Of a stretch of DNA of 64,000 bases, positions 3,921 through 15,051 are shown in pieces. The notes under the pieces were generated by a model, which did not search any database, was not told the DNA's origin, and worked only from the letters and a program-made list of their open reading frames with translations. Source of the DNA: an uncultured Methanomassiliicoccales archaeon (GTDB taxonomy: Archaea; Thermoplasmatota; Thermoplasmata; Methanomassiliicoccales; UBA472); contig OY968769.1 in the NCBI GenBank assembly GCA_963695345.1, positions 416,001 to 480,000 on the forward strand, written 5' to 3'. The first letter of the stretch is position 1; each line of letters begins with the position of its first letter. The translations under genes were made by a program, and so were the position numbers.

Positions 3921-5606
3921 TTATCCTCCGAACATCCAGCCGCCCTCAGGGACCTCGATCTCGAACCTGACGCCCATTCCCTCTATCCCGGTCTCGTTGA
4001 TGGTCATCCCGGTAATTCCCAGGATCTCCTTTGCCGCGTAAAGGCCCAGGCCAGTGTTGCTTCCGAAACCCATCTTGAAGATCTTGTCCTTGTCCTCTTG
4101 GCTGATCCCCATGCCGTCGTCCCGGTACACTATGACCTTGATGTTCCCCCGGTCCTCCACCTCCACCCAGATGGTGCTGACGTTTCCTCCGTGCCGTTGG
4201 GAGTTCTCCATGAGGTTGAAGAACATGCGTTCCAACATCAGGTCGGAGTAGACCTTGAGTCCCACTGTCTGGAAGTGATAGGTTATGGTCCGTGATGCCA
4301 ATGCCATCCTGGCCTTTTCCAGCACTTCTCCCAGTGCCTGCCATTCAGGAGCCTTCACGCCTAGGTTCTGGTATTCCTTGGCGAACTCGATCCCGTGCTG
4401 GATGGCCGAGACGGAGGCAACGATCTTGTCCATTATTTGATGGAGCTCCTCGTCGTCCCGGCGTTTTGAGGCGATGAGCTCTCCGTAGCCGTGGATGACC
4501 ATCAGCTGGTTCATGATGTCGTGGCGGGTTATGCTGGACATCAGGTTCAGTTTGGAATTGGCGGTCTTAAGCTCCCGCTGGTTCTTTCGTTCCTCGGTGA
4601 CATCCTTGAGCAGGATGAGGGTACCGGACTGCTCCTGACCATGATTGACGATCTTGGTGATGACGATATCCACGATCCTGTCCCCGAACGACCCCGGGAA
4701 GGTCAGCTCCTTTTTCACCGTCCCGGCATCGACCAGCTCATGGATCATTGGGACCACGTCGGCGAGCATCTTGCCGCTGATGGCCTTGCTCTCCAGCCCT
4801 AGCAACTCCTCGACGGCCGGGTTGGAATATATGATCTGTCTCCTATTGTCGATCACCAGGGTACCGTCCTTGATCGTCTGGATGACCGAGTCCAACACCA
4901 ATGGGGTCATGTCCAGTAGCTCATAACGGAACGACCCGTAGAAAAGCACCAGTATAGTGCCCAGGAAACCGGTGTCCAGCATGAAGCTCATCGGAAATTC
5001 TTCGGAGAAGGTGATTCCGATGAACAGAGCCAACATGGGAAACCCGACCGCTCCCAGGATTACCATCACCTGCTTGCGGTGGTGCCGGCTGCGGCTGAAC
5101 AGCCCCTGGGCCACCAAGGTCACCCCTGATACCATTATGAAAACGAAGAACACCACCAACAACCAGAAACCGATCCCGTAGGAATAGGTAAGGCCGTTTA
5201 TCGCGCCAAAGAACTGCTGGCTGCCCAAGTTGGCATAGAACGCATGGGTGGAATCGTTGGTCCAGAGCAGCACCAGCAGGGTGGCGGGGACCAGGAACAG
5301 CAGGAACATCCTCCGGCGATCCAGCATATCGTTCCTTCCCAGATAGGAGACGATGAAGATCAGGAACAATGATGGCAATATGATGAAGACGGACATTTCC
5401 AGAAGATTCCAGGCTGCCATCGTCCCCCTGTCCGGGGACAGGATCTCGCCCAAGTACCCGACGGTGAACATTACGATAGCGCCCATCAAGAAGATGAAAG
5501 GTGCTCTGATGGGCCGTGTGCGAGAGGTCCACTCCAGAGCCACCAGCGTCATCGCCACGGTGACGGTGATCCATACCGGTAAGGTAAGAACAAAGGTAAG
5601 GTCCAC
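3921..5606 (-). CDS. Sensor histidine kinase, HisKA_7TM + PAS + HisKA/HATPase
   Basis: 7 hydrophobic segments with LLWTND, a PAS domain, H-box TRHDIMNQL, N-box NLMENSQRHG, DDGMGI and GLGL. Confidence 0.9.
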   Translation of the reverse strand: MDLTFVLTLPVWITVTVAMTLVALEWTSRTRPIRAPFIFLMGAIVMFTVGYLGEILSPDRGTMAAWNLLEMSVFIILPSLFLIFIVSYLGRNDMLDRRRMFLLFLVPATLLVLLWTNDSTHAFYANLGSQQFFGAINGLTYSYGIGFWLLVVFFVFIMVSGVTLVAQGLFSRSRHHRKQVMVILGAVGFPMLALFIGITFSEEFPMSFMLDTGFLGTILVLFYGSFRYELLDMTPLVLDSVIQTIKDGTLVIDNRRQIIYSNPAVEELLGLESKAISGKMLADVVPMIHELVDAGTVKKELTFPGSFGDRIVDIVITKIVNHGQEQSGTLILLKDVTEERKNQRELKTANSKLNLMSSITRHDIMNQLMVIHGYGELIASKRRDDEELHQIMDKIVASVSAIQHGIEFAKEYQNLGVKAPEWQALGEVLEKARMALASRTITYHFQTVGLKVYSDLMLERMFFNLMENSQRHGGNVSTIWVEVEDRGNIKVIVYRDDGMGISQEDKDKIFKMGFGSNTGLGLYAAKEILGITGMTINETGIEGMGVRFEIEVPEGGWMFGG

Positions 5607-5677: not shown

Positions 5678-7357
5678 CTACCGGAACCTCCACCCTCCTT
5701 TTGGAACGGTCAGGACGAAACGTACCCCGCTTCCAGCCCGACCCCGTTCAGATATGGATATGTCGGTAATCGCCAGGATCTGCTTCGATATCAGGAGCCC
5801 GATCCTGGTGTTTTCTGGGGAATCCCGAAAGATGTCGGCCTTTCGCTCCAGCGGTATGCCCACCCCATCGTCCTCATATACGATGTTCAGGTCCGAACCG
5901 TTGACCTCCGAACTGATGGTTATCGTCTGGACCCCCTGACCGTGCTTGGCCGAGTTGTGGATGAGATTGTGGAAGACCTTTTCCAGCATTCGGTCCGCGA
6001 ATATCTCCACATTCCCCACCTTAATGTCCACCTGAGATGGAGGTGAGGGACCTATGCTCCTTGCCCGGGCCAGGACCAGTTCCAGGTCCTGCCATTCCGG
6101 CTCTTTCACACCCAGGTCCTGGTATTCCCTGGTGAACAGCACCTGCTTCTCTATTGCGGCGGCCGAAGCGGTCATGGTGCTTACGTATTTGGCAACGTCC
6201 GACTGCTTGACCTCTCCCATCTTGATCAGGTCACCGTAGCCCCTTATGACCGAGAGTTGGTTCAGGATGTCGTGCCTCGTGATGTTGGAGAGCAGCATGA
6301 GCTTGGAGTTGGCGGTCCTCAGGGCTTCCGAGGTCCTCTTCTCCTCCGTGACATCCCTCAGGACCAACAATCTACCGGTGGGCATACCGGACCCGTTCCT
6401 GATGGTGGATGCCCGGACGTCATAATAGCACTTCTCGACCCCGGTCTTCTGGACCAACAGCTCCGCCTTCCCGTCCTCAAGGGTCTCGAGGGCATCGGAC
6501 AGGAATGGAAGGGAATGTGACAATGACCTGCCCATCCCTTCCTGTGAGCCGCTGCCGATGATGCTCCGGGCTGGCAGGTTCAAAAAGACGATCCGCCCTT
6601 TGATGTCCAGGACGATCGTGCCGTCATGAATGTTGGATACCATGGCATCAAAGGTGACTGGGTTGATCTCGAACATCTCGAACCGGAAGGTGCAGATGAA
6701 AATGATTATGCTGGTGACCATGAAACCAACGGTCAGGATGTAGCTTGTGGGCAGATGGAATATGTTCGTGAATCCGAGCAGGATGGCCACGGTCGGTATG
6801 GCACCGGCCAGTATGACACCGAACAGCTGGTACCGCTGGGTGTTATACGCGGTCCCCAATGATCTCAGGCACAGGGCGATCGCCGCGATGACCAGGACGA
6901 TGGTGTATACCATGTGCATCCAGAACCAAGGCCCGTAGGTGACGGCCATCACTGTACCGTCGCCCCAACCTGTGGAGGATACGCTGGTGTAGACCAGATG
7001 ATGCAGGTCGTTCGTCCAAAGCAGCGACAGGGTCGCCAATGGGATGAGGGAGAGGAGGACGACCCTCCTGATGCTGAGCCATTTGTCCATTCCCACGTAA
7101 CCGATTATCAGCACCAGGTAGAGCGTGGCGGCGAACACCGCGTAGATGTACTCGATATTGTTCCAGAATATCATCTCAGCCAGGTCCCTGCTGGACATCT
7201 CCAGGCTGAAACCCATGGTGGCTAGGATTATCCCGGCCATGGAAAGAATGAAAGGCCATTTGATCGGAAGGGTGCTCTTGGAGGCAGAGAATGCCAGAAT
7301 GAAACAGATCATCACCGTTGCTATGAGAGGCAAGGTGAGGAGGAATCCGAGCGCCAT
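5678..7357 (-). CDS. Sensor histidine kinase, HisKA_7TM + PAS + HisKA/HATPase (tandem paralogue)
   Basis: LLWTNDLHH, H-box TRHDILNQL, NLIHNSAKHG, DDGVGI; same architecture as the neighbour. Confidence 0.9.
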   Translation of the reverse strand: MALGFLLTLPLIATVMICFILAFSASKSTLPIKWPFILSMAGIILATMGFSLEMSSRDLAEMIFWNNIEYIYAVFAATLYLVLIIGYVGMDKWLSIRRVVLLSLIPLATLSLLWTNDLHHLVYTSVSSTGWGDGTVMAVTYGPWFWMHMVYTIVLVIAAIALCLRSLGTAYNTQRYQLFGVILAGAIPTVAILLGFTNIFHLPTSYILTVGFMVTSIIIFICTFRFEMFEINPVTFDAMVSNIHDGTIVLDIKGRIVFLNLPARSIIGSGSQEGMGRSLSHSLPFLSDALETLEDGKAELLVQKTGVEKCYYDVRASTIRNGSGMPTGRLLVLRDVTEEKRTSEALRTANSKLMLLSNITRHDILNQLSVIRGYGDLIKMGEVKQSDVAKYVSTMTASAAAIEKQVLFTREYQDLGVKEPEWQDLELVLARARSIGPSPPSQVDIKVGNVEIFADRMLEKVFHNLIHNSAKHGQGVQTITISSEVNGSDLNIVYEDDGVGIPLERKADIFRDSPENTRIGLLISKQILAITDISISERGRAGSGVRFVLTVPKGGWRFR

Positions 7358-7446: not shown

Positions 7447-8142
7447 TCAATCCCGCGGCTCCCAATTCGGGTCCTGCCATTCGCTGCCGGCCATTTCACG
7501 GCATTCCGCTATGATGGCATTCACCTGCTTATCGTGTCGGACCTCCTGGGCAAGGTCGGTGATGAGCTCATTGGTGTACCGACGGTGACAGGCAGGGCAC
7601 AGGGTCTTGAGATTCCCCGGATGGTCGGAACCCCCTCGGGAGCGGGGGATGATGTGATGGACCTCTAGCGACTCATATCTAGTACCGCCCTTGCCGTGCC
7701 TAAGGGTAGGATCATAGACCTTCATTCGGCCACGCTCGAAGTTCACTCCGCAATCCTGGCAGATGTACTTGTCCCGACGAAGCACTGCCGACTTGATCTT
7801 CGGCCAGAGGACCCGCCTGACCAGGTCTGAGGTGTCTGGAGCATAAGGCTGCTGAGTGGTGCCGGTGAGGAAGAACTTGCGCAATCCCGGCAGATCCGAC
7901 CGCATCTGCTTCAGTACCTGCTTGGTCGATGACCATGCTTCGCAGATCATGCGGGAATTTGAGTCCGGTCGGTGTCGATGGCCGCAATGGGGGCAGACGA
8001 CCATGGCCTTCTTGGTCACCTTCGCCGCCACTGCCGAGCGAAAAGGACAGATAGCGGCCAGTTCCGGACCGCAGAGGACGGGCCGGGTCTCATCGCCCCC
8101 ATGGAAGACCAACGAGGGTATGGAGTTCTCGGGGTCGGCCAT
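7447..8142 (-). CDS. HNH endonuclease family protein with N-terminal Cys motifs
   Basis: VLRRDKYICQDCG...LEVHHIIPRSRGGSDHPGNLKTLCPACH; extra CPHCGHRH. Start placed at MADPEN. Confidence 0.85.
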   Translation of the reverse strand: MADPENSIPSLVFHGGDETRPVLCGPELAAICPFRSAVAAKVTKKAMVVCPHCGHRHRPDSNSRMICEAWSSTKQVLKQMRSDLPGLRKFFLTGTTQQPYAPDTSDLVRRVLWPKIKSAVLRRDKYICQDCGVNFERGRMKVYDPTLRHGKGGTRYESLEVHHIIPRSRGGSDHPGNLKTLCPACHRRYTNELITDLAQEVRHDKQVNAIIAECREMAGSEWQDPNWEPRD

Positions 8143-8326
8143 CCGCTTGGTTTTCAGGAGGCAATAGCTGCTCTCGGCCCCGGTCAGGCGAAAATGGCAT
8201 ACCATTTCGGACTTCTCCATCCTTTCGGCTCTGAAGATACTGGGCACATAATAACATTTTCTGGGAGTTCTTCCGATGCCAACGATTATCTACCTCAGAA
8301 AGCCCTTGAATAATTGGCGACATGAA

Positions 8327-9676
8327 ATGGGCGAATGGGACTGGCAATTGTATCCAGAAACGGATGAGTTCGTTTCCGGATTGATCGGGTCCTTCATGGA
8401 CGGGAACGGTCACGCCGATGTGCTCCGAAGTGAGATAGAGAATACCAGCTCTACCCGGTTCATTGATTGGGTGGATAGCATGGAAATCCCTGAGGAGGAC
8501 ATTGGTGCTGAGGACCTTGAGCGGATAGGATACGTCAAGGACTCAAGTAAGAGTGTCGATGGAACCGTCTTCAACCATCCCGGTTCGTCCTTTCCGATCA
8601 TTTTGCGGACCGACCGGTCATACCGGCTGTCCATCGGTGTGGACCTAATGGAACGGTTCTTGGATATGAGTGGTTATTCCAACAAAAAGACAGAGGGAGA
8701 ACCCAACGCCCCTCTGCGGAAGGTCGAGTTGAACCGGGAAGGGACCTGTTCCTTCTTCGCGCTGGAGCGGCATGGCGGTCGAACATTCGATGTCGAACCG
8801 GCAACAGACATCGATGAATACGAATCGGCATTGAAGTGCCTCGCCGCCCGGAAAAGGGTCATCTCGGATGATCGAGAAGGCATGGATGACCTGAAGGCCC
8901 AGATCGAGATCTTGGGAGACAGCCTGGAAAGATCCCGCCTGGCAGACGCCTTCTTCCGTGTCGAGAGGGACTATTGGCGATCCAGGAACCGGGCTGGAGC
9001 GGTGCAGTTCGGGCGGCAGGATCGGTTGGGGTTGGGCTGGGGCAATCACGACCATCACACCTTCCGATGTTCCAGGGAGAATTTCGCAGACGCCATCGGC
9101 ATCTTCGGGATGATGGGCATGGCCCGCCGCGAGCGTTTCTTCGCCGGGGCGGAGGCTGGATGGGGGGCACAGGTCATGGAACAACCGGATTCCGGCCTGG
9201 TCGTATTTGCAGACGTGGACCTGGGGCCGGATGAGGTCGGTTCAGATTTCACCAGAGAGAGATTGGAACCGTTGCAAAGGCTGGGCACGGTCGGGCTATG
9301 GGTTGGTCTGCATGGAGAAAGCCTCTTGGGATCTGGCATGCATCATCTTGCGTTAGGCTCCGACTTCCGGAGGATGCGCGAGGACCTGACGGCCCGAGAG
9401 GTGAATTCGATGGCTCCATTCTCAGAGTTCCAGTTCCTCAAGCAGTCGTTCACCGTGGCGGAGCATTGGATCCCGCCTAAGTGGAGGGTCGAACGCCTTT
9501 TGAGAGAAAGGCTCATCACCGATGAACAGTCGGCCAAGTTCATGAGGCTTGGAGCACTGGGGAGCCACTTGGAGACCATCCAAAGGGACCAGGGATTCAA
9601 GGGGTTCAATCAGAGCTCGGTGAGCGCCATCATTCGAATGACGAACCCATTGGACCGGCCGGCCATCGGAGCGTAG
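8327..9676 (+). CDS. Uncharacterised VOC-fold metalloenzyme with HPPD/HmaS-like C-terminal motifs
   Basis: NHDHHTFR, GMHHLAL, FLKQSFT and HLETIQRDQGFKGFN parallel HPPD motifs DH, GxQHIA, LLQIFT and FEIIQR..GFG. CDS confidence is high; function is inferred. Confidence 0.7.
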   Translation: MGEWDWQLYPETDEFVSGLIGSFMDGNGHADVLRSEIENTSSTRFIDWVDSMEIPEEDIGAEDLERIGYVKDSSKSVDGTVFNHPGSSFPIILRTDRSYRLSIGVDLMERFLDMSGYSNKKTEGEPNAPLRKVELNREGTCSFFALERHGGRTFDVEPATDIDEYESALKCLAARKRVISDDREGMDDLKAQIEILGDSLERSRLADAFFRVERDYWRSRNRAGAVQFGRQDRLGLGWGNHDHHTFRCSRENFADAIGIFGMMGMARRERFFAGAEAGWGAQVMEQPDSGLVVFADVDLGPDEVGSDFTRERLEPLQRLGTVGLWVGLHGESLLGSGMHHLALGSDFRRMREDLTAREVNSMAPFSEFQFLKQSFTVAEHWIPPKWRVERLLRERLITDEQSAKFMRLGALGSHLETIQRDQGFKGFNQSSVSAIIRMTNPLDRPAIGA

Positions 9677-9680
9677 GGAC

Positions 9681-11172
9681 ATGACCGAGGGTATCCTATC
9701 GATCAAGGGAAAAGTGATCACGGACGAGAGGCAGCTAGAGCGGTATGCCAGTGATCTGAGCCATTATTATATCAAACCAAAGATGGTGGCCATCCCTCTG
9801 GACGAGAACGACATCGTAGGAGCGGTGGATTTCGCCGTCGCTAACGGCATCGTCATAACACCAAGGGGCGCGGGGTCGAACCTGTCCGGCTCGGCAGTGG
9901 GCGAAGGCATGGTCATCCTGACCCGGGAGATGGACCGCTTGGTCGGAAGGGAGGACCACATATACTCATGCCAACCGGGCATGGTCTTCAACCAATTGGA
10001 CAAGCAGGCCAGGATGGACGGCTTTTTCATACCCTACGACCCTAGCTCGAGGGCTTTCTGCACCATCGGCGGAAATGTCGGGACCAGGGCCAGCGGCATC
10101 CGTTCCTTGAAGTATGGCAGCACGGACAACTGCCTGGATTCGATCCGGTTCATCAGTCCCGCGTTCGGTCTGGTGGATACCGCCAAAGAGCTCCCGAGCC
10201 CGCTCAAAGCGGGCACTGGAGGACATCACCGCACGTCTACGGGACGATGAGGAGATGCTTCTGCTCCTGGAGACCCGGGGCAACCTCAAATCCAGCAGCG
10301 GATATAACCTGGGTGCGTTCCTGGAAGAGAAGACCGTGAACCGGGTCGCCGCCCATCTGATGGTGGGTTCGGTGGGGACACTGGCGGTGTTCACGGAGGT
10401 GCGACTACGATTGCGGCCGCTTTACAAGAATAGGACGTTGTACCTGGTGTTCTTTGAATCTTTGTCAGAAGCCGTGCGGAAGATGCTTCCGGCCCGGGAG
10501 TTCGCACCTTCCGCCTTCGAAATGCTCGATTCGTTCGGGGTGAAGAACTTGGCCTCACTGGTGCAGGTGCCGACCGGGGCGAACGCGGTGATAATGATCG
10601 AGTTCGACGAAGACCTAAGTGAATCGGGCTCGAAGATGGCGGCATTGCTGAAGGACGTAGGACGCAAAGGCATGGTGTTCAATGACCAAGCGCTCATCGA
10701 GAGGATATGGAATGTCCGGGAGAGCAACCTGCTGCGCATCAAGCACGAGATAGAGCGACCAGAGCTCAAGTTCCTATCTTTCATAGATGATCTGGCCGTA
10801 CCTCCTGACCGATTGCCGGACCTGATAGAGAAGCTGAACACGATATTCAGGCAGGAGGGATTGCAGGTGATCATGTATGGCCATGTCGGAGAAGGCAACC
10901 TGCATGTCAGACCTTACATCCACAAGGACGGATGGGAAGAGGTCACCATACGCCTGGCGGAGAAATGCTTCCGGGTGGTGCTGGAGAATGACGGCACCAT
11001 CACCGGAGAGCACGGTTTGGGCCGCAACCGGTCAAAATACCTTTGTGACGAGTGGGGGAAGAAGGCCTGCGGTTATTTCCGCGAGATCAAGCAGATATTC
11101 GATCCGCAGGGACTGATGAACCCCGGGGTGGTGTTCACGGACAGCGATCTCACTGAACATCTCCGATTCTAG
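9681..11172 (+). CDS. FAD-linked oxidoreductase (GlcD/D-lactate/D-2-hydroxyglutarate dehydrogenase family); +1 frameshift near 10207
   Basis: PRGAGSNLSG, TIGGNVGTRASG, GYNL, GHVGEGNLH, GEHGLG, FDPQGLMNPG. The two ORFs join on removing one A from CTCAAAGCGG. Confidence 0.85.
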
Positions 11173-11251
11173 CGGTCAGGATATGTCAAGGAATTCTATT
11201 ATCAGACCCTGATAATGACGAGCGAAACTTATTAACCGCTGAATTCTTCGA

Positions 11252-11632
11252 ATGATAACGGAGAATCAGGTATTGCCGATTTCTGACCTTCTGAAAAGCC
11301 GTGCCAAGATCATATTCTTGGTTCTGATCATCGCCGGGGCAGCGGTTATTCTCTCGGCCCTGATACTGGCATTCACCATCGACACGAGCAATGTTATTGA
11401 CCTCTATGTCCTGGAATCGACCACCCTTAGCGTGGGCATGGTGATGCTGTGCATGGGCATCATCCTGATGAAGAACGGTGAGAACATTTTCGGAACCAGC
11501 GTCACCGAGATGGAAAAGCAGAGGATGCACGACGACATGCACCGACAGGTGATGTCGGAGATGCGCCTGTCACCGAAGGACGTGGAGATCCAGAAGTCGA
11601 TCGAAGAGTCGGACGACGAGCTGTTCAAATGA
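11252..11632 (+). CDS. Small hypothetical membrane protein (2 TM + acidic tail)
   Basis: Two hydrophobic stretches followed by a charged C-terminus; TTATTAA promoter-like element upstream. Confidence 0.6.
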   Translation: MITENQVLPISDLLKSRAKIIFLVLIIAGAAVILSALILAFTIDTSNVIDLYVLESTTLSVGMVMLCMGIILMKNGENIFGTSVTEMEKQRMHDDMHRQVMSEMRLSPKDVEIQKSIEESDDELFK

Positions 11633-11670: not shown

Positions 11671-13005
11671 TCAGGAGCCCCTCCCCACGAAGACATTCTG
11701 ACCGGCAATATGCGAACCGAGCTCATCTGACGGTGCTCCGATCTTCTCCAGTATCTCCTTCGGATCGCTGTTTCGCAGGAAGAAATACAGCGTGGAATCG
11801 ATGATCTTGACCATGCTGATGCTGACGTCGAAATCGAACAGAGGAGGGTTTATCTGTTTCTTTATCTGGTACTTCGTTATCGTGTTCAGGAAGTTGCTCA
11901 TGTCGCTGGGACGGATGTCATCGGGCCGGTGGTGGATCTTCAATATCGCTTGCTGAATATCGGCTCTCTTGAATCCGTCCGTGATCTTGCTGAAATCGGA
12001 ATTCAATAGCACCACTAGGAAGTAGAAGGGTATGAACAGAGGAATGCGGTCGCTGGTCCTTCTCGAGGATTCGGCAAACGATTCCAGAGCCCGCAGATGC
12101 CGGGAAGAATAATCGTCCAGTTTCTTCTTGATCGCCTCATCCAGGTGCCAGCTCAGGATCTTGACCTTCTGCGGTGAGGTCTCAGTCACTCCGGCGCTCA
12201 TGCAGGAACGGTTGCACAGCTCTTGGAGCACCCCGATGCTGTCGAACGAATAATCGATGATATTCTTCTGGACATCGGAAAAATCGACGTTCAGGATCCT
12301 CGACCCTTTTTCAATGACCCGCTGGAAATCCGCGTTGTCCCAAGGCTCCACTGCCACCTCCACGACCCGGTCCTGCAGATCACCGTTGAATTGTATCAGA
12401 CGGTTCCTTTCACGCCATATGCCCAGGATCACAAATCGGATGCCCAGCTCCTGGAATATCCGAAGATCGTAGGCTAATTTTTCCTGGACCTCCTGAGCGA
12501 GATAATGGAAGTTCTCCAGGACGATGTATCTTTCGAAACCGATCTCGTTCAGTAGTTCGGCGACGTCTGCTGCCAGATTCAGGTTGTACTCGATGGTCCG
12601 GTATTCCTGCGTTCGGGACCTTTCTCCCCCTTTGGTGGACTCAACGCCCCCTCCTAGGTCCGCGAAGATGGGGATCTTGACCTTGGTGGATATTTTGGAA
12701 CTCACAGTACCGGAATCAGTGGTTTGTTCCGATGTTTCGGTCATGATCTGGACCCCGCTGTGGCGCAGTATCGATGCGTAAACGTCCCCCTTTTCGGTGT
12801 CCGGGGCGCACTGGTATACCAGTTGGGATTCAGGCTTCAGATGCTTGTTCAACAACGATGTCTTACCCTGTTTTGACGAACCATACACTATTACCTGTTT
12901 TCTTGATTCCAATGCCGCACGGAAGGATCCGTCCACTCCCTCCCGCTCGATGTAGGATTCGACGACCCCGCTTGAAACCCCGAACACATTCTGAGTCTTG
13001 CTCAT
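11671..13005 (-). CDS. Orphan P-loop NTPase (AAA/STAND-like), function unknown
   Basis: Walker A VIVYGSSKQGKTS; Walker B-like YIVLENFH; 444 aa. Confidence 0.75.
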   Translation of the reverse strand: MSKTQNVFGVSSGVVESYIEREGVDGSFRAALESRKQVIVYGSSKQGKTSLLNKHLKPESQLVYQCAPDTEKGDVYASILRHSGVQIMTETSEQTTDSGTVSSKISTKVKIPIFADLGGGVESTKGGERSRTQEYRTIEYNLNLAADVAELLNEIGFERYIVLENFHYLAQEVQEKLAYDLRIFQELGIRFVILGIWRERNRLIQFNGDLQDRVVEVAVEPWDNADFQRVIEKGSRILNVDFSDVQKNIIDYSFDSIGVLQELCNRSCMSAGVTETSPQKVKILSWHLDEAIKKKLDDYSSRHLRALESFAESSRRTSDRIPLFIPFYFLVVLLNSDFSKITDGFKRADIQQAILKIHHRPDDIRPSDMSNFLNTITKYQIKKQINPPLFDFDVSISMVKIIDSTLYFFLRNSDPKEILEKIGAPSDELGSHIAGQNVFVGRGS

Positions 13006-13255
13006 TTCCCCATCCGCGATATCATTGAATTGCAGACCTATTAATGATTATGAGAATCGAAAGATCGAATTGACCTCATGCAAGAAACAGACAAGGTCTG
13101 GGGAGTGTACGGTTGGCACCGGCATCCCTCGACTTGTTCCCGTCATTTCGGCTTTGAGATGCCCTAGCCCCATGTTCCACAACTTTCACCAGTACTGCCT
13201 GCCAGTCGAATCTACAAAGACAAAACTTTTTAAATGGAGGCGTAATGGCAGCGTC

Positions 13256-15051
13256 ATGATTATCCGGGCCGATTCAATATCACGCGCCTTCAACGCCAAG
13301 GAAGTGCTGCGTTCGGCCACTTTACAGATCAACGAAGGGGACCGGGTCGGACTTGTGGGCAGGAACGGGGCCGGCAAGACCACTCTCCTGAAGATCCTCA
13401 TGGGAGAGCTCAAGCCGGATACTGGAGAGCTCTCGATCCGGGCGAAGAGGATATGCTACCTCTCACAGTTCGCGCAGGAAGGAGGTCCAGATAAGGTGGA
13501 GGACCTCCTGAACAGCACCTCCACATTGACCCAGCAGGAGAAAAGGATGGCCGAGCTGGAGAGGATGATGGTCGAAGGCCCGGAGAGCGGCGGCATGGAC
13601 TGGGATTCGCTCATGGAGGAGTATAACTCCCTGCATGAGGAGATCGCCAAGTCCAGTTCCAAGGGAAGCGGGACCAAGACCAAGGAAGCACTAGAATCGG
13701 TGGGCCTGGATCACATGACCGAAGGCCTCATGTCGGAGATGAGCGGGGGCGAACGCACCAAAGCCCGGATCGCCCAGATACTCATGCAGGCAGGGGATGC
13801 GGACCTGATCATCCTGGACGAACCGACCAGCCACCTGGACATCGATACCGTCGAATGGCTTGAGGAATATCTCATGAACATCGGATCGGGGCTTCTGATC
13901 GTGTCCCACGACCGTTATTTCATGGACCGGGTCGCCAACCAGATCGTGGAGCTGGAAGAGGGCGTCACGAATCAATATTCAGGCAATTACACCCAGTTCG
14001 TGGAGAAGAAGGAACTGGAATATGAACGGCTCAAGATGGCGGCGGAAAAGTACAGCACGGAAAAGGACCGGCTGGAGAAGATGGCCGAGCAGCAGCACGC
14101 CAAGCTATGGTACAAATCCACGCACAAGGTGACGCTCAAGCGCATTGACCGCATGGACAAGGTGGACCCTCCCCGGGAAGAGCGCGACATCAAAATGAGG
14201 ATCGACAGCGCCAGCCGTGGAGGGCGGGAGGCCATTCGGGCTAAGGAACGTGACGGTGGAGCTGGGCGGCAGGAAGATCATCAACTCACTCGACCTGGAC
14301 ATCGAGGTGGGCGACAAGGTCGGCATCATCGGCCCCAACGGCTGCGGCAAGACCACACTGATCAGGGCCATCATGGGAGAGGTGGAACACTCGGGTGAAC
14401 TGTGGGTCGCTCCGGGCGCCAAGATCGGTTACTTCGCCCAGGGCCACGACCACCTGAATCCGGACATCAGCGCGGAACAGCAGTTGCTCCTTGACCTGGG
14501 CCCGGACGAGAAGCTGAAGGCCAGAAGCCTGCTTGCCAGGCAGATGATCACCGGCTACGACGCCAACCGTCCGATAAGGACGCTCTCCGGAGGGGAGAGG
14601 GCCAAGGTTGCGCTGGCCTCGCTAATCGCAGAACGCCGCAACCTTCTGGTGCTGGATGAGCCGACTAACTATCTGGACATTCCCTCCAAGAACGCGGTCG
14701 AGTCGGCGTTGGCGGAATATACCGGGACCATGGTGGTCGTTACCCATGACCGTTATTTCCTGGATGCCGTGTGCAACAAGATATGCGAGATAAGGGACGG
14801 CAAGGCAAAGGTCTTCCCCGGAACATATACCGAGATGAAGGGTTCGAAGACCTTCCACGAGGTAGTGGTGGAGGAGGCGGCGATTCTACAAGGTGGTGTC
14901 CTCGTTCACCGAATGGACCTCAAAGAGGACCTTCAAACCGGGGGATAAGGTATCGGTCGCCCCCAGCGAGATGCCTCTCTTCAAATGGGCCTTTGACAAC
15001 GGAAAGCTAAAAAAGGTCCAGGGCACGGAGAAGAAGAAAATCCAACAATGA
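13256..15051 (+). CDS. ABC-F family ribosome-associated ATPase; frameshifts near 14245 and 14884
   Basis: Two ABC domains (GRNGAGKT/MSGGE/LDEPTSHLD/SHDRYF and GPNGCGKT/LSGGE/LDEPTNYLD/THDRYF) with no TM domain. The corrected frame ends ...EKKKIQQ* at 15051. Confidence 0.88.

Follow-up and report, generated by a model that had tools for sequence, protein, structure and literature searches.

What does a methanogen do with a protein built like an oxygenase, encoded directly in front of a flavoenzyme? The question is raised by two genes in a stretch of 64,000 nucleotides, here called the window, from an uncultured Methanomassiliicoccales archaeon (assembly GCA_963695345.1, contig OY968769.1, positions 416,001 to 480,000 of the forward strand); unless a locus is named, coordinates are window positions. 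Gene 1 (8327..9676, stop included, + strand) encodes a 449-residue, two-domain vicinal oxygen chelate (VOC) superfamily protein, from an HglS-like family that carries no annotation. Gene 2 (9681..11172, + strand) encodes an FAD-linked D-2-hydroxyacid dehydrogenase of the GlcD/LctD/D2HGDH family, 496 amino acids long if one extra base is discounted. We propose, with a probability of about 0.5, that gene 1 specifies an HglS-like Fe(II) oxygenase that converts 2-oxoadipate to D-2-hydroxyglutarate, from which the flavoenzyme regenerates 2-oxoglutarate.

Sequence searches give the gene 1 protein no name. It has no Pfam match at E ≤ 0.01 or at E ≤ 10 and no NCBIfam match, phmmer returned nothing meaningful, and PDB sequences were matched neither by the single sequence nor by a 30-sequence profile. 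Its matches in the ESM Atlas are unnamed "hypothetical protein" clusters only. A word-index search scored 8000 candidates, of which 5522 lay at E ≤ 1e-3; among the 120 matches listed there was no Pfam domain, and the names given were all "hypothetical protein". The family is nevertheless large. An exhaustive profile search of 1.84 billion cluster representatives (clusters at 50% identity) gave 1031 matches at E ≤ 1e-3, of which 700 reach E ≤ 1e-10 and 272 reach E ≤ 1e-30, and the GTDB species genomes hold at least 586 members, since 586 of the 600 pattern matches listed encode a relative. Because Pfam and NCBIfam do not detect the family, thousands of genomes annotate it as "hypothetical". A sequence-only reading of this DNA had called the module undescribed, and for the literature searched this holds: the family is not described there, and only work on HglS, D-2-hydroxyglutarate dehydrogenase (D-2-HGDH) and YdiJ, and unrelated work, was found. 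New here are the split of the family into two clades of different genomic context, the DUF1338-like N-terminal domain, the residue pattern of the partner enzymes and the reading of a frameshift in gene 2.

An AlphaFold2 model of the gene 1 protein, built from a 30-sequence alignment (predicted local distance difference test score, pLDDT, 88.2; predicted template modelling score, pTM, 0.89), has the paired beta-alpha-beta-beta-beta modules of the VOC superfamily. By DSSP, module 1 comprises strand 241-247, helix 253-262 and strands 266-272, 279-285 and 292-298, and module 2 comprises strand 340-344, helix 347-355 and strands 366-376 and 414-420. Against the PDB, Foldseek ranked hydroxymandelate synthase (HmaS) first (E 1.1e-9) and then 4-hydroxyphenylpyruvate dioxygenases (HPPDs) at E 1e-9 to 1e-8, with low global TM scores. 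VIA-align was run over Foldseek's 1000 best chains; 117 of these reached Z ≥ 8, all of them VOC proteins among the matches listed, and the matches of the whole model span residues 198-446. The best belong to the DUF1338/HglS family: 3iuz (Z 15.1, 214 residues aligned, rmsd 3.4) and 3lho (13.6), followed by rice HglS 6w1k (13.1), P. putida HglS 6w1g (11.8) and YdcJ 2rjb (11.4). HmaS scored 11.7 and 11.3, HPPD 11.1, and glyoxalases and methylmalonyl-CoA epimerases 9-10. Thus, the VOC fold claimed by the sequence-only reading is borne out by the model and by both searches. The likeness to HPPD and HmaS that it noted stands in the Foldseek ranking, but by VIA-align the nearest family is HglS/DUF1338 (Z 15.1-11.8 vs about 11).

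The N-terminal half was also modelled on its own. Residues 1-235, folded separately (pLDDT 90.0) and compared with 48,161 representative chains with no Foldseek step, gave Z ≥ 8 only with 3lho (11.0), 3iuz (10.7) and 6w1k (10.1), all DUF1338 proteins and all covering residues 1-157. This DUF1338-like VOC domain (8327..8797, + strand) has DS at the "DH" position in this lineage and is probably non-catalytic. It is followed by a helical linker (residues 158-235, 8798..9031, + strand) with DSSP helices at 162-173, 182-197, 202-220 and 222-232, for which only generic helical matches were obtained, and by the C-terminal VOC domain (residues 236-449, 9032..9673, + strand), proposed to be catalytic from its VIA-align match to DUF1338/HglS and its invariant residues. 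As modelled, then, the gene 1 protein consists of two DUF1338-like VOC domains in tandem, with a helical segment between them.

Which residues would form the active site? Residues were counted over 89 family sequences (81 loci plus 8 relatives). H243, R247, H339, H340, E416, R420 and K425 occur in all 89, H414 in 88 and H244 in 86. In the model, H243 lies on the first strand of module 1, H340 on the first strand of module 2 and E416 on the last strand. We propose from this invariance that the metal ligands are His243 (9053-9055), His340 or His339 (9341-9346) and Glu416 (9572-9574), and that Arg247 (9065-9067), at position His243+4, binds a carboxylate of the substrate; Arg420 (9584-9586) is also invariant, and all these codons are on the + strand. 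The His/His/Glu set foreseen from the sequence is therefore conserved throughout the family and sits on the expected strands. The four motifs named with it, DHH (242-244), GMHHLAL (337-343), FLKQSFT (370-376) and LETIQRDQGFKGFN (415-428), are likewise present, and they follow one another as do IDHIVGN, GVQHVAL, YLLQLFT and FFEIIQRxGxxSFGKGNF in four fetched HPPDs. In eleven DUF1338 proteins from Planctomycetota the invariant residues are H65, R69 (His+4), N225-H226 and E297-x3-R301. For HglS, PMC7286885 gives His70, His226 and Glu294 as the metal ligands and describes a salt bridge between Arg74 (Arg64 in FLO7) and the distal carboxylate of 2-oxoadipate, the R74A variant being inactive.

Profile comparisons point to the same positions at scores that are not significant. 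Against the eleven DUF1338 proteins, hhalign aligned a single stretch, HDHHTFR with dHGAiRT, which contains the metal His and the His+4 Arg (Prob 4%, E 0.01, non-significant); against the four HPPDs it placed GMHHLA and LExxQRxxGFKGFN on the second and fourth HPPD motifs (Prob 0.3%, E 0.24, non-significant). Because neither comparison is significant, homology of the gene 1 protein to HglS or HPPD rests on structure. Between HglS and rice FLO7 the identity is reported to be only about 15% (PMC7286885), which makes it plausible that a third HglS-like lineage exists at great divergence.

The gene 2 product, the partner enzyme, matches FAD_binding_4 (PF01565, 94.5 bits) and FAD-oxidase_C (PF02913, 160.9 bits), and its best solved relatives are glycolate oxidase 9qgz (1.3e-44), LctD (2.4e-38), LDHD (7e-30) and D-2-HGDH (5.9e-27). 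Its Zn and catalytic motifs follow GHxGxGNxH and EHGxG, reading YGHVGEGNLH and GEHGLG; the roles of the His/His/Glu Zn site and the catalytic His in FAD-linked D-2-hydroxyacid dehydrogenases are described in PMC7801405. According to the same paper, D-2-HGDH holds the C5 carboxylate of its substrate by Lys401, Thr390, Tyr432 and Asn443, positions that are small or hydrophobic in GlcD and D-lactate dehydrogenase (D-LDH). The gene 2 product keeps the equivalents of Arg386 and Tyr432 and has Arg in place of Asn443. The VOC-linked FAD enzymes of methanogens, Bathyarchaeota and Nitrospirota have the pattern YGHxGxGNxHxR, with Tyr432 kept and Arg at 443, and those of Micrarchaeota have FGHxGxGNxHxN, with Asn443 kept. 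This residue pattern is a modest hint that the substrate may be a dicarboxylate. Enzymes of the YdiJ type and of the GlcD type have been reported to oxidise D-2-hydroxyglutarate downstream of HglS (10.1101/450254, PMC9504171).

The family extends far beyond methanogens. The best 80 GTDB matches include Micrarchaeota, Bathyarchaeia, Nanoarchaeota and Thorarchaeota among archaea, and Patescibacteria, anammox and other Planctomycetota, Verrucomicrobiota, Acidobacteriota, Nitrospirota and Chlamydiales among bacteria; archaeal and bacterial members are about 45% identical. Ten of 40 relatives of the host carry the gene, namely 6 of the 7 genomes from its own genus and 4 of the 5 from two further genera in its family (2/3 and 2/2), and it was not found in those other families of the order that were searched among the 40. 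A maximum-likelihood tree of 88 sequences, from which a 374-aa fragment (L077) had been dropped beforehand, splits the family into two clades with SH-aLRT 99 each. Clade I (39 rows) contains these methanogens, Bathyarchaeia, Micrarchaeota, Nanoarchaeota with Patescibacteria, Thorarchaeota and anammox bacteria, and clade II (49 rows) contains Verrucomicrobiota, other Planctomycetota, Acidobacteriota, Nitrospirota and others.

The genes that accompany the family were surveyed by calling and clustering open reading frames within 4 kb in the 81 loci and counting cluster members of at least 250 aa. A lysine-catabolic gene is found in 27 loci, a D-2-hydroxyacid dehydrogenase in 18 (10 FAD-type and 8 NAD-type, the latter with PF02826 and PF00389) and one or the other in 43; for the 48 loci flanked by 3 kb or more on each side, the counts are 18, 14 and 30. 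The lysine-catabolic neighbours are L-piperideine-6-carboxylate (P6C) dehydrogenase (NF050084, 806 bits, cut-off 730), L-lysine 6-transaminase (LAT; TIGR03251, 552 bits, cut-off 521) and a saccharopine-dehydrogenase-like gene (PF16653 + PF03435). When the locus survey, the related methanogen genomes and the tree are combined, clade I has a dehydrogenase neighbour in 24 of 39 cases and a lysine gene in 2, and clade II a dehydrogenase in 2 of 49 and a lysine gene in 25. Both contexts meet at locus L052, where LAT, an FAD oxidase and the VOC gene stand together, and at L046, with an FAD oxidase and P6C dehydrogenase. In all 8 related methanogen genomes examined, the FAD gene lies directly 3′ of the VOC gene. 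The linkage of homologues to hydroxy-acid dehydrogenases that the sequence-only reading anticipated is thus seen in these 8 genomes and in the 18 loci. A conserved third partner in the archaeal clade was sought and rejected, the neighbours besides the dehydrogenase being heterogeneous; the small membrane protein at 11252..11632 is syntenic within the genus only.

Two other arrangements were observed. At two loci from two further genera in the host's family, the next gene after the FAD dehydrogenase encodes a Pirin (Fe cupin; L099:3519-4361, − strand; L101:8835-9734, + strand), and this VOC-FAD-Pirin order may point to a connection with redox or oxygen stress. In a Micrarchaeota locus (L014:2657-8288, + strand), genes for Iso_dh, PrpD/MmgE, ComA, the VOC protein and an NAD-type D-2-hydroxyacid dehydrogenase form a tight same-strand row, in which Iso_dh and PrpD/MmgE could produce a 2-oxo-dicarboxylate for use by the VOC enzyme.

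No canonical HGLS (PF07063) turned up in any of 20 other family-bearing genomes, nor in the host genome by a six-frame search. Among 151 Planctomycetota genomes, PF07063 occurs in 12, the new family in 14 and both in 2; about one overlap is expected by chance, so the comparison is uninformative as to mutual exclusion. In the two genomes with both, the new-family match is a divergent, shorter form. This form, which occurs in some large Planctomycetota genomes (G068:C1:8634796-8635908; G209:C1:4250988-4252073; G154:C68:59132-60217), has about 400 aa, matches profile columns 8-382 at E about 1e-80 and apparently lacks the Glu-bearing C-terminus; two of these three genomes also carry a canonical HGLS gene.

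How would the pair work? In mechanism the gene 1 protein would belong with HglS, HmaS and HPPD, as a non-haem Fe(II) 2-His-1-Glu alpha-keto-acid oxygenase in which the C-terminal domain alone is catalytic. A 2-oxo-acid would chelate the metal held by His243, His340 (or His339) and Glu416, with Arg247 holding its distal carboxylate; O2 would drive decarboxylation and then hydroxylation. The fold, the invariance of the residues, the conservation of the operon and its linkage to dehydrogenases and lysine genes are observed here, whereas we infer which metal, substrate and product are involved and that O2 is required. Because of the lysine-gene linkage in the bacterial clade, 2-oxoadipate is the likely substrate, and the most likely reaction would be 2-oxoadipate + O2 → D-2-hydroxyglutarate + CO2. 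The gene 2 product, translationally coupled and carrying FAD and probably Zn, would then oxidise D-2-hydroxyglutarate to 2-oxoglutarate. Coenzyme B synthesis includes a 2-oxoacid elongation route, and methanogens make C6-C8 2-oxo-dicarboxylates. In this methanogen, 2-oxoadipate would have to be supplied by that elongation rather than by lysine, and the enzyme would then be able to act only upon intrusion of O2.

Several observations weigh against this proposal. At the level of sequence, no significant link ties the gene 1 protein to HglS or HPPD; at the level of structure, P. putida HglS itself (Z 11.8) is level with HmaS (11.7). Further invariant polar residues (D242, D296, D298, H414, K425 and others) are unaccounted for by the HglS model. 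In sequence, the gene 2 product stands nearer to glycolate oxidase and LctD than to D-2-HGDH, and no equivalent of Lys401 aligns, Phe lying opposite it in a stretch rich in indels. The linkage to lysine genes comes almost wholly from clade II (25/49), clade I, to which the window belongs, contributing 2/39, and the comparison of PF07063 with the new family is underpowered, with 12 and 14 carriers and 2 shared. Finally, there is oxygen. HglS is reported to consume O2 stoichiometrically and, through Arg74, to be strictly specific for 2-oxoadipate (PMC7286885), and the window's clade is rich in anaerobes (anammox bacteria, Bathyarchaeia, Patescibacteria). The host, which the sequence-only reading took for a probable strict anaerobe, has McrA (224 bits) and is a methanogen; in its genome, a single contig estimated to be 85% complete, no cytochrome bd oxidase and no haem-copper oxidase were found, in support of that view, and LAT and P6C dehydrogenase remain below cut-off (158 bits vs 520.8 and 291 vs 730). 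The O2 problem for an oxygenase in this host is real.

It is tempting to turn the problem around. In strict anaerobes (methanogens, anammox bacteria, Bathyarchaeia, DPANN and Candidate Phyla Radiation, CPR), the clade might serve as the O2-consuming step of a cycle that removes O2 without reactive oxygen species, rather than in lysine catabolism. Homocitrate-type (Aks) enzymes would make 2-oxoadipate from 2-oxoglutarate, the VOC enzyme would put both atoms of O2 into D-2-hydroxyglutarate and CO2, and the flavoenzyme would regenerate 2-oxoglutarate, so that acetyl-CoA would in effect be burnt to detoxify O2. We regard such a cycle as speculative and improbable.

The same O2-dependent chemistry might act, in the archaeal and anaerobe clade, on another chain length: on 2-oxopimelate, on 2-oxosuberate, or on 2-oxoglutarate to give D-malate. 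The pair would in that case shorten chains by one carbon, trimming or recycling elongated 2-oxoacids, among them perhaps the C6-C8 compounds of methanogens. The clade of the window is separate in the tree (SH-aLRT 99) and is linked to dehydrogenases, not to lysine genes; the host has neither LAT nor P6C dehydrogenase above cut-off; and the Micrarchaeota locus contributes Iso_dh and PrpD-family genes as possible makers of a 2-oxo-dicarboxylate. Nor does Arg247 decide the matter, since it speaks for a distal carboxylate only and not for chain length. However, both clades have the same candidate pocket residues wherever these were checked (89/89), which favours a single substrate, and HglS is described as strictly 2-oxoadipate-specific through the equivalent Arg (PMC7286885). 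Moreover, the clade is made up mostly of organisms other than methanogens (Micrarchaeota, Bathyarchaeia, anammox bacteria), which have no need of coenzyme B, and we consider a different chain length unlikely, if worth keeping in mind. Another alternative, the second option of the sequence-only reading, would be a VOC enzyme that needs no O2, for example a thiol-independent isomerase of the glyoxalase type, which would turn methylglyoxal or another 2-oxoaldehyde into a D-2-hydroxy acid for a neighbouring D-lactate-type dehydrogenase, or an epimerase or isomerase with a hydroxy or oxo acid as its substrate. This would suit the host and much of its clade, which are strict anaerobes, and the partner families do include D-lactate dehydrogenases (LctD at 2.4e-38, LDHD at 7e-30, and the NAD-type PF02826). 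The invariant D296 and D298, on strand 4 of module 1, might supply a fourth ligand in the manner of glyoxalase I or the epimerases, and glyoxalases and methylmalonyl-CoA epimerases do match the model, at Z 9-10. The oxygenase branch (DUF1338, HmaS, HPPD) nevertheless scores higher, at Z 11-15; the set and order of the motifs are those of HPPD and HglS; and the Arg at His+4 is a substrate-binding feature of HglS. Linkage to lysine catabolism in 25 of 49 clade II loci has no glyoxalase logic, and the FAD partners are polar or charged at the position of Asn443 of D-2-HGDH, unlike D-LDH and GlcD. An O2-independent enzyme thus seems rather unlikely to us, and the HglS-like oxygenase is the reading that we prefer.

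A different doubt concerns whether the pair functions in this genome at all. As given, the window splits gene 2 over two frames, 9681..10250 and 10114..11172, and its 1492 nt are not a multiple of 3. The domains and the 4-bp spacing reported from the sequence alone are correct, but the FAD gene is not one open reading frame in the window sequence, being shifted at about 10209. Alignment with five same-genus relatives, all of which have an uninterrupted frame of 497 codons, places a single extra base within 10197..10209 (+ strand). A contig from an independent public run (X1; 3455 nt, depth 8.2, about 99% identical) covers 9854-11300 with 10 substitutions and omits exactly one base, at 10209, an omission that leaves 1491 nt with a terminal stop only; three further runs (X2-X4) gave only pieces of 151-176 nt, none covering 10209, and no RNA run was among the public runs listed. 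The ABC-F ATPase gene at 12998..14950 (+ strand) has two frame changes, after "...AIRAK" and "...EEAA", and is a single unbroken open reading frame in relative L094; together with the FAD gene this makes three indels in about 6 kb. The host genome, although a single contig, is rated 85% complete, vs 93-99% for most relatives. Because of the X1 contig, the intact relatives, the frame changes in ABC-F and the low completeness score, we suspect an indel-prone assembly. The frameshift is probably an indel introduced in assembly; a mutation specific to the strain is less likely. That the sequence is right as it stands, and that the module is decaying and the pair a non-functional relic here whatever its original chemistry, seems to us very improbable: the nearly identical contig and the five relatives speak against it, as do the two further frame changes in ABC-F within about 2 kb and the catalytic residues of gene 1, which are all intact.

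The limits of the pair and the DNA in front of it were also considered. The open frame on the + strand runs from 8276 to 9676 and is longer than the gene proper. A start codon at 8276 was ruled out; since homologues align from ATG 8327 and the upstream frame is broken in five relatives, ATG 8327 is taken as the start of gene 1. The TAG stop at 9674-9676 and the next ATG at 9681 leave 4 bp, which confirms the earlier description of a 449-aa open reading frame with an FAD oxidoreductase 4 bp on. The extension that resembles some database proteins owes this likeness to a conserved DNA motif, ATG..AACGATTATCTACC (8276..8294, + strand), which lies 33-51 nt 5′ of the start codon and is a candidate operator or 5′ leader element. 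The 14-nt block AACGATTATCTACC is unchanged in all six genomes of the genus amid variable sequence, and the frame across it has stops or frame changes in five relatives and is non-coding. Further upstream, in the divergent intergenic region, a TATA-like element, TAATA..ATTTT (8249..8260, + strand), has columns that are invariant in six aligned same-genus upstream regions, and is probably the archaeal promoter of the gene pair. Together, the two blocks may be the promoter plus an operator or leader of the pair. A search of the region upstream of gene 1 against Rfam gave no match.

Divergent from gene 1, at 7447..8247 (− strand), lies a gene for a 266-aa HNH endonuclease with zinc ribbons and a weak IscB-like HNH match (45 bits). 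It is 82-84% identical across the genus (gene 1: 62-68%), and the CAT conserved at 8219-8221 suggests that translation really begins at ATG 8221. Beyond it are two tandem HisKA_7TM-PAS-HATPase sensor kinases (3921..5606 and 5678..7357, − strand), each with a counterpart in related genomes, one about 70% and one about 37% identical to the query kinase. On the other side, a 444-aa P-loop protein (11671..13005, − strand) with weak AAA_22 and RexA matches is present in two of five same-genus relatives at 86-88% identity; its gene is possibly a variable insertion of the defence type that separates the pair from the ABC-F gene.

If the gene 1 protein is an analogue of HglS, it would account for how 2-oxoadipate is taken to 2-oxoglutarate in the lysine catabolism of Planctomycetota, Verrucomicrobiota, Acidobacteriota and several archaeal phyla, and it would represent a third, two-domain lineage of alpha-keto-acid-dependent VOC oxygenases, between HglS and HPPD/HmaS. 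If its turnover is independent of O2, the family would carry out VOC chemistry not yet described. The conserved operon in methanogens leaves two options: strict anaerobes keep an O2-consuming enzyme, for example for oxygen defence or for salvage of coenzyme B precursors, or the fold supports an O2-independent reaction.

Three known systems invite comparison. The closest is HglS/YdcJ/FLO7 (DUF1338, PF07063 "HGLS"; PDB 6w1g, 6w1h, 6w1k, 3iuz, 3lho and 2rjb), the 2-oxoadipate dioxygenase-decarboxylase, also called hydroxyglutarate synthase. It is the best structural match for both domains of the gene 1 protein, and the ordered invariant His, Arg at His+4, second His and Glu-x3-Arg of DUF1338 recur in the gene 1 family. 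Like HglS of P. putida, the family has a D-2-hydroxyacid dehydrogenase as partner and shows linkage to genes of lysine catabolism. Unlike HglS, the gene 1 protein has no PF07063 match at any E-value (gathering score 25 bits) and consists of two DUF1338-like domains with a helical linker, not of one barrel. Its C-terminal motif, LExxQRxxGFKGFN, is HPPD-like rather than DUF1338-like, and its family has many extra invariant polar residues and occurs in strict anaerobes.

HPPD (TIGR01263) and HmaS (PDB 2r5v, 3zgj, 1t47 and 3isq) have the two-barrel plan that the gene 1 protein recalls, with a non-catalytic N-domain and a catalytic C-domain, as proposed here. Their motif order, IDH / GxQHxA / LLQxFT / FExIQRxGxxxFGxGNF, is mirrored in the gene 1 protein. 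The residue at His+4, however, is Arg in the gene 1 family, as in HglS, vs the Asn of IDHIVGN, and the genomic context is one of lysine genes and hydroxy-acid dehydrogenases vs tyrosine catabolism; TIGR01263 had no match in three family-carrying genomes (G044, G063 and G091).

The gene 2 product, for its part, resembles the GlcD/LctD/LDHD/D-2-HGDH/YdiJ family in its two Pfam domains, its Zn and catalytic motifs and its Arg386 equivalent. It differs from the equivalog families in scoring below their cut-offs (glcD 82+136 bits vs 567.9; YdiJ 58+109 vs 1350), from YdiJ in having, with 496 aa, no C-terminal Fe-S domain, and from D-2-HGDH in its unaligned Lys401 equivalent and in the Arg for Asn443. 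For these reasons its substrate is not assignable from sequence, and D-2-hydroxyglutarate is proposed for it as the likely product of the gene 1 enzyme.

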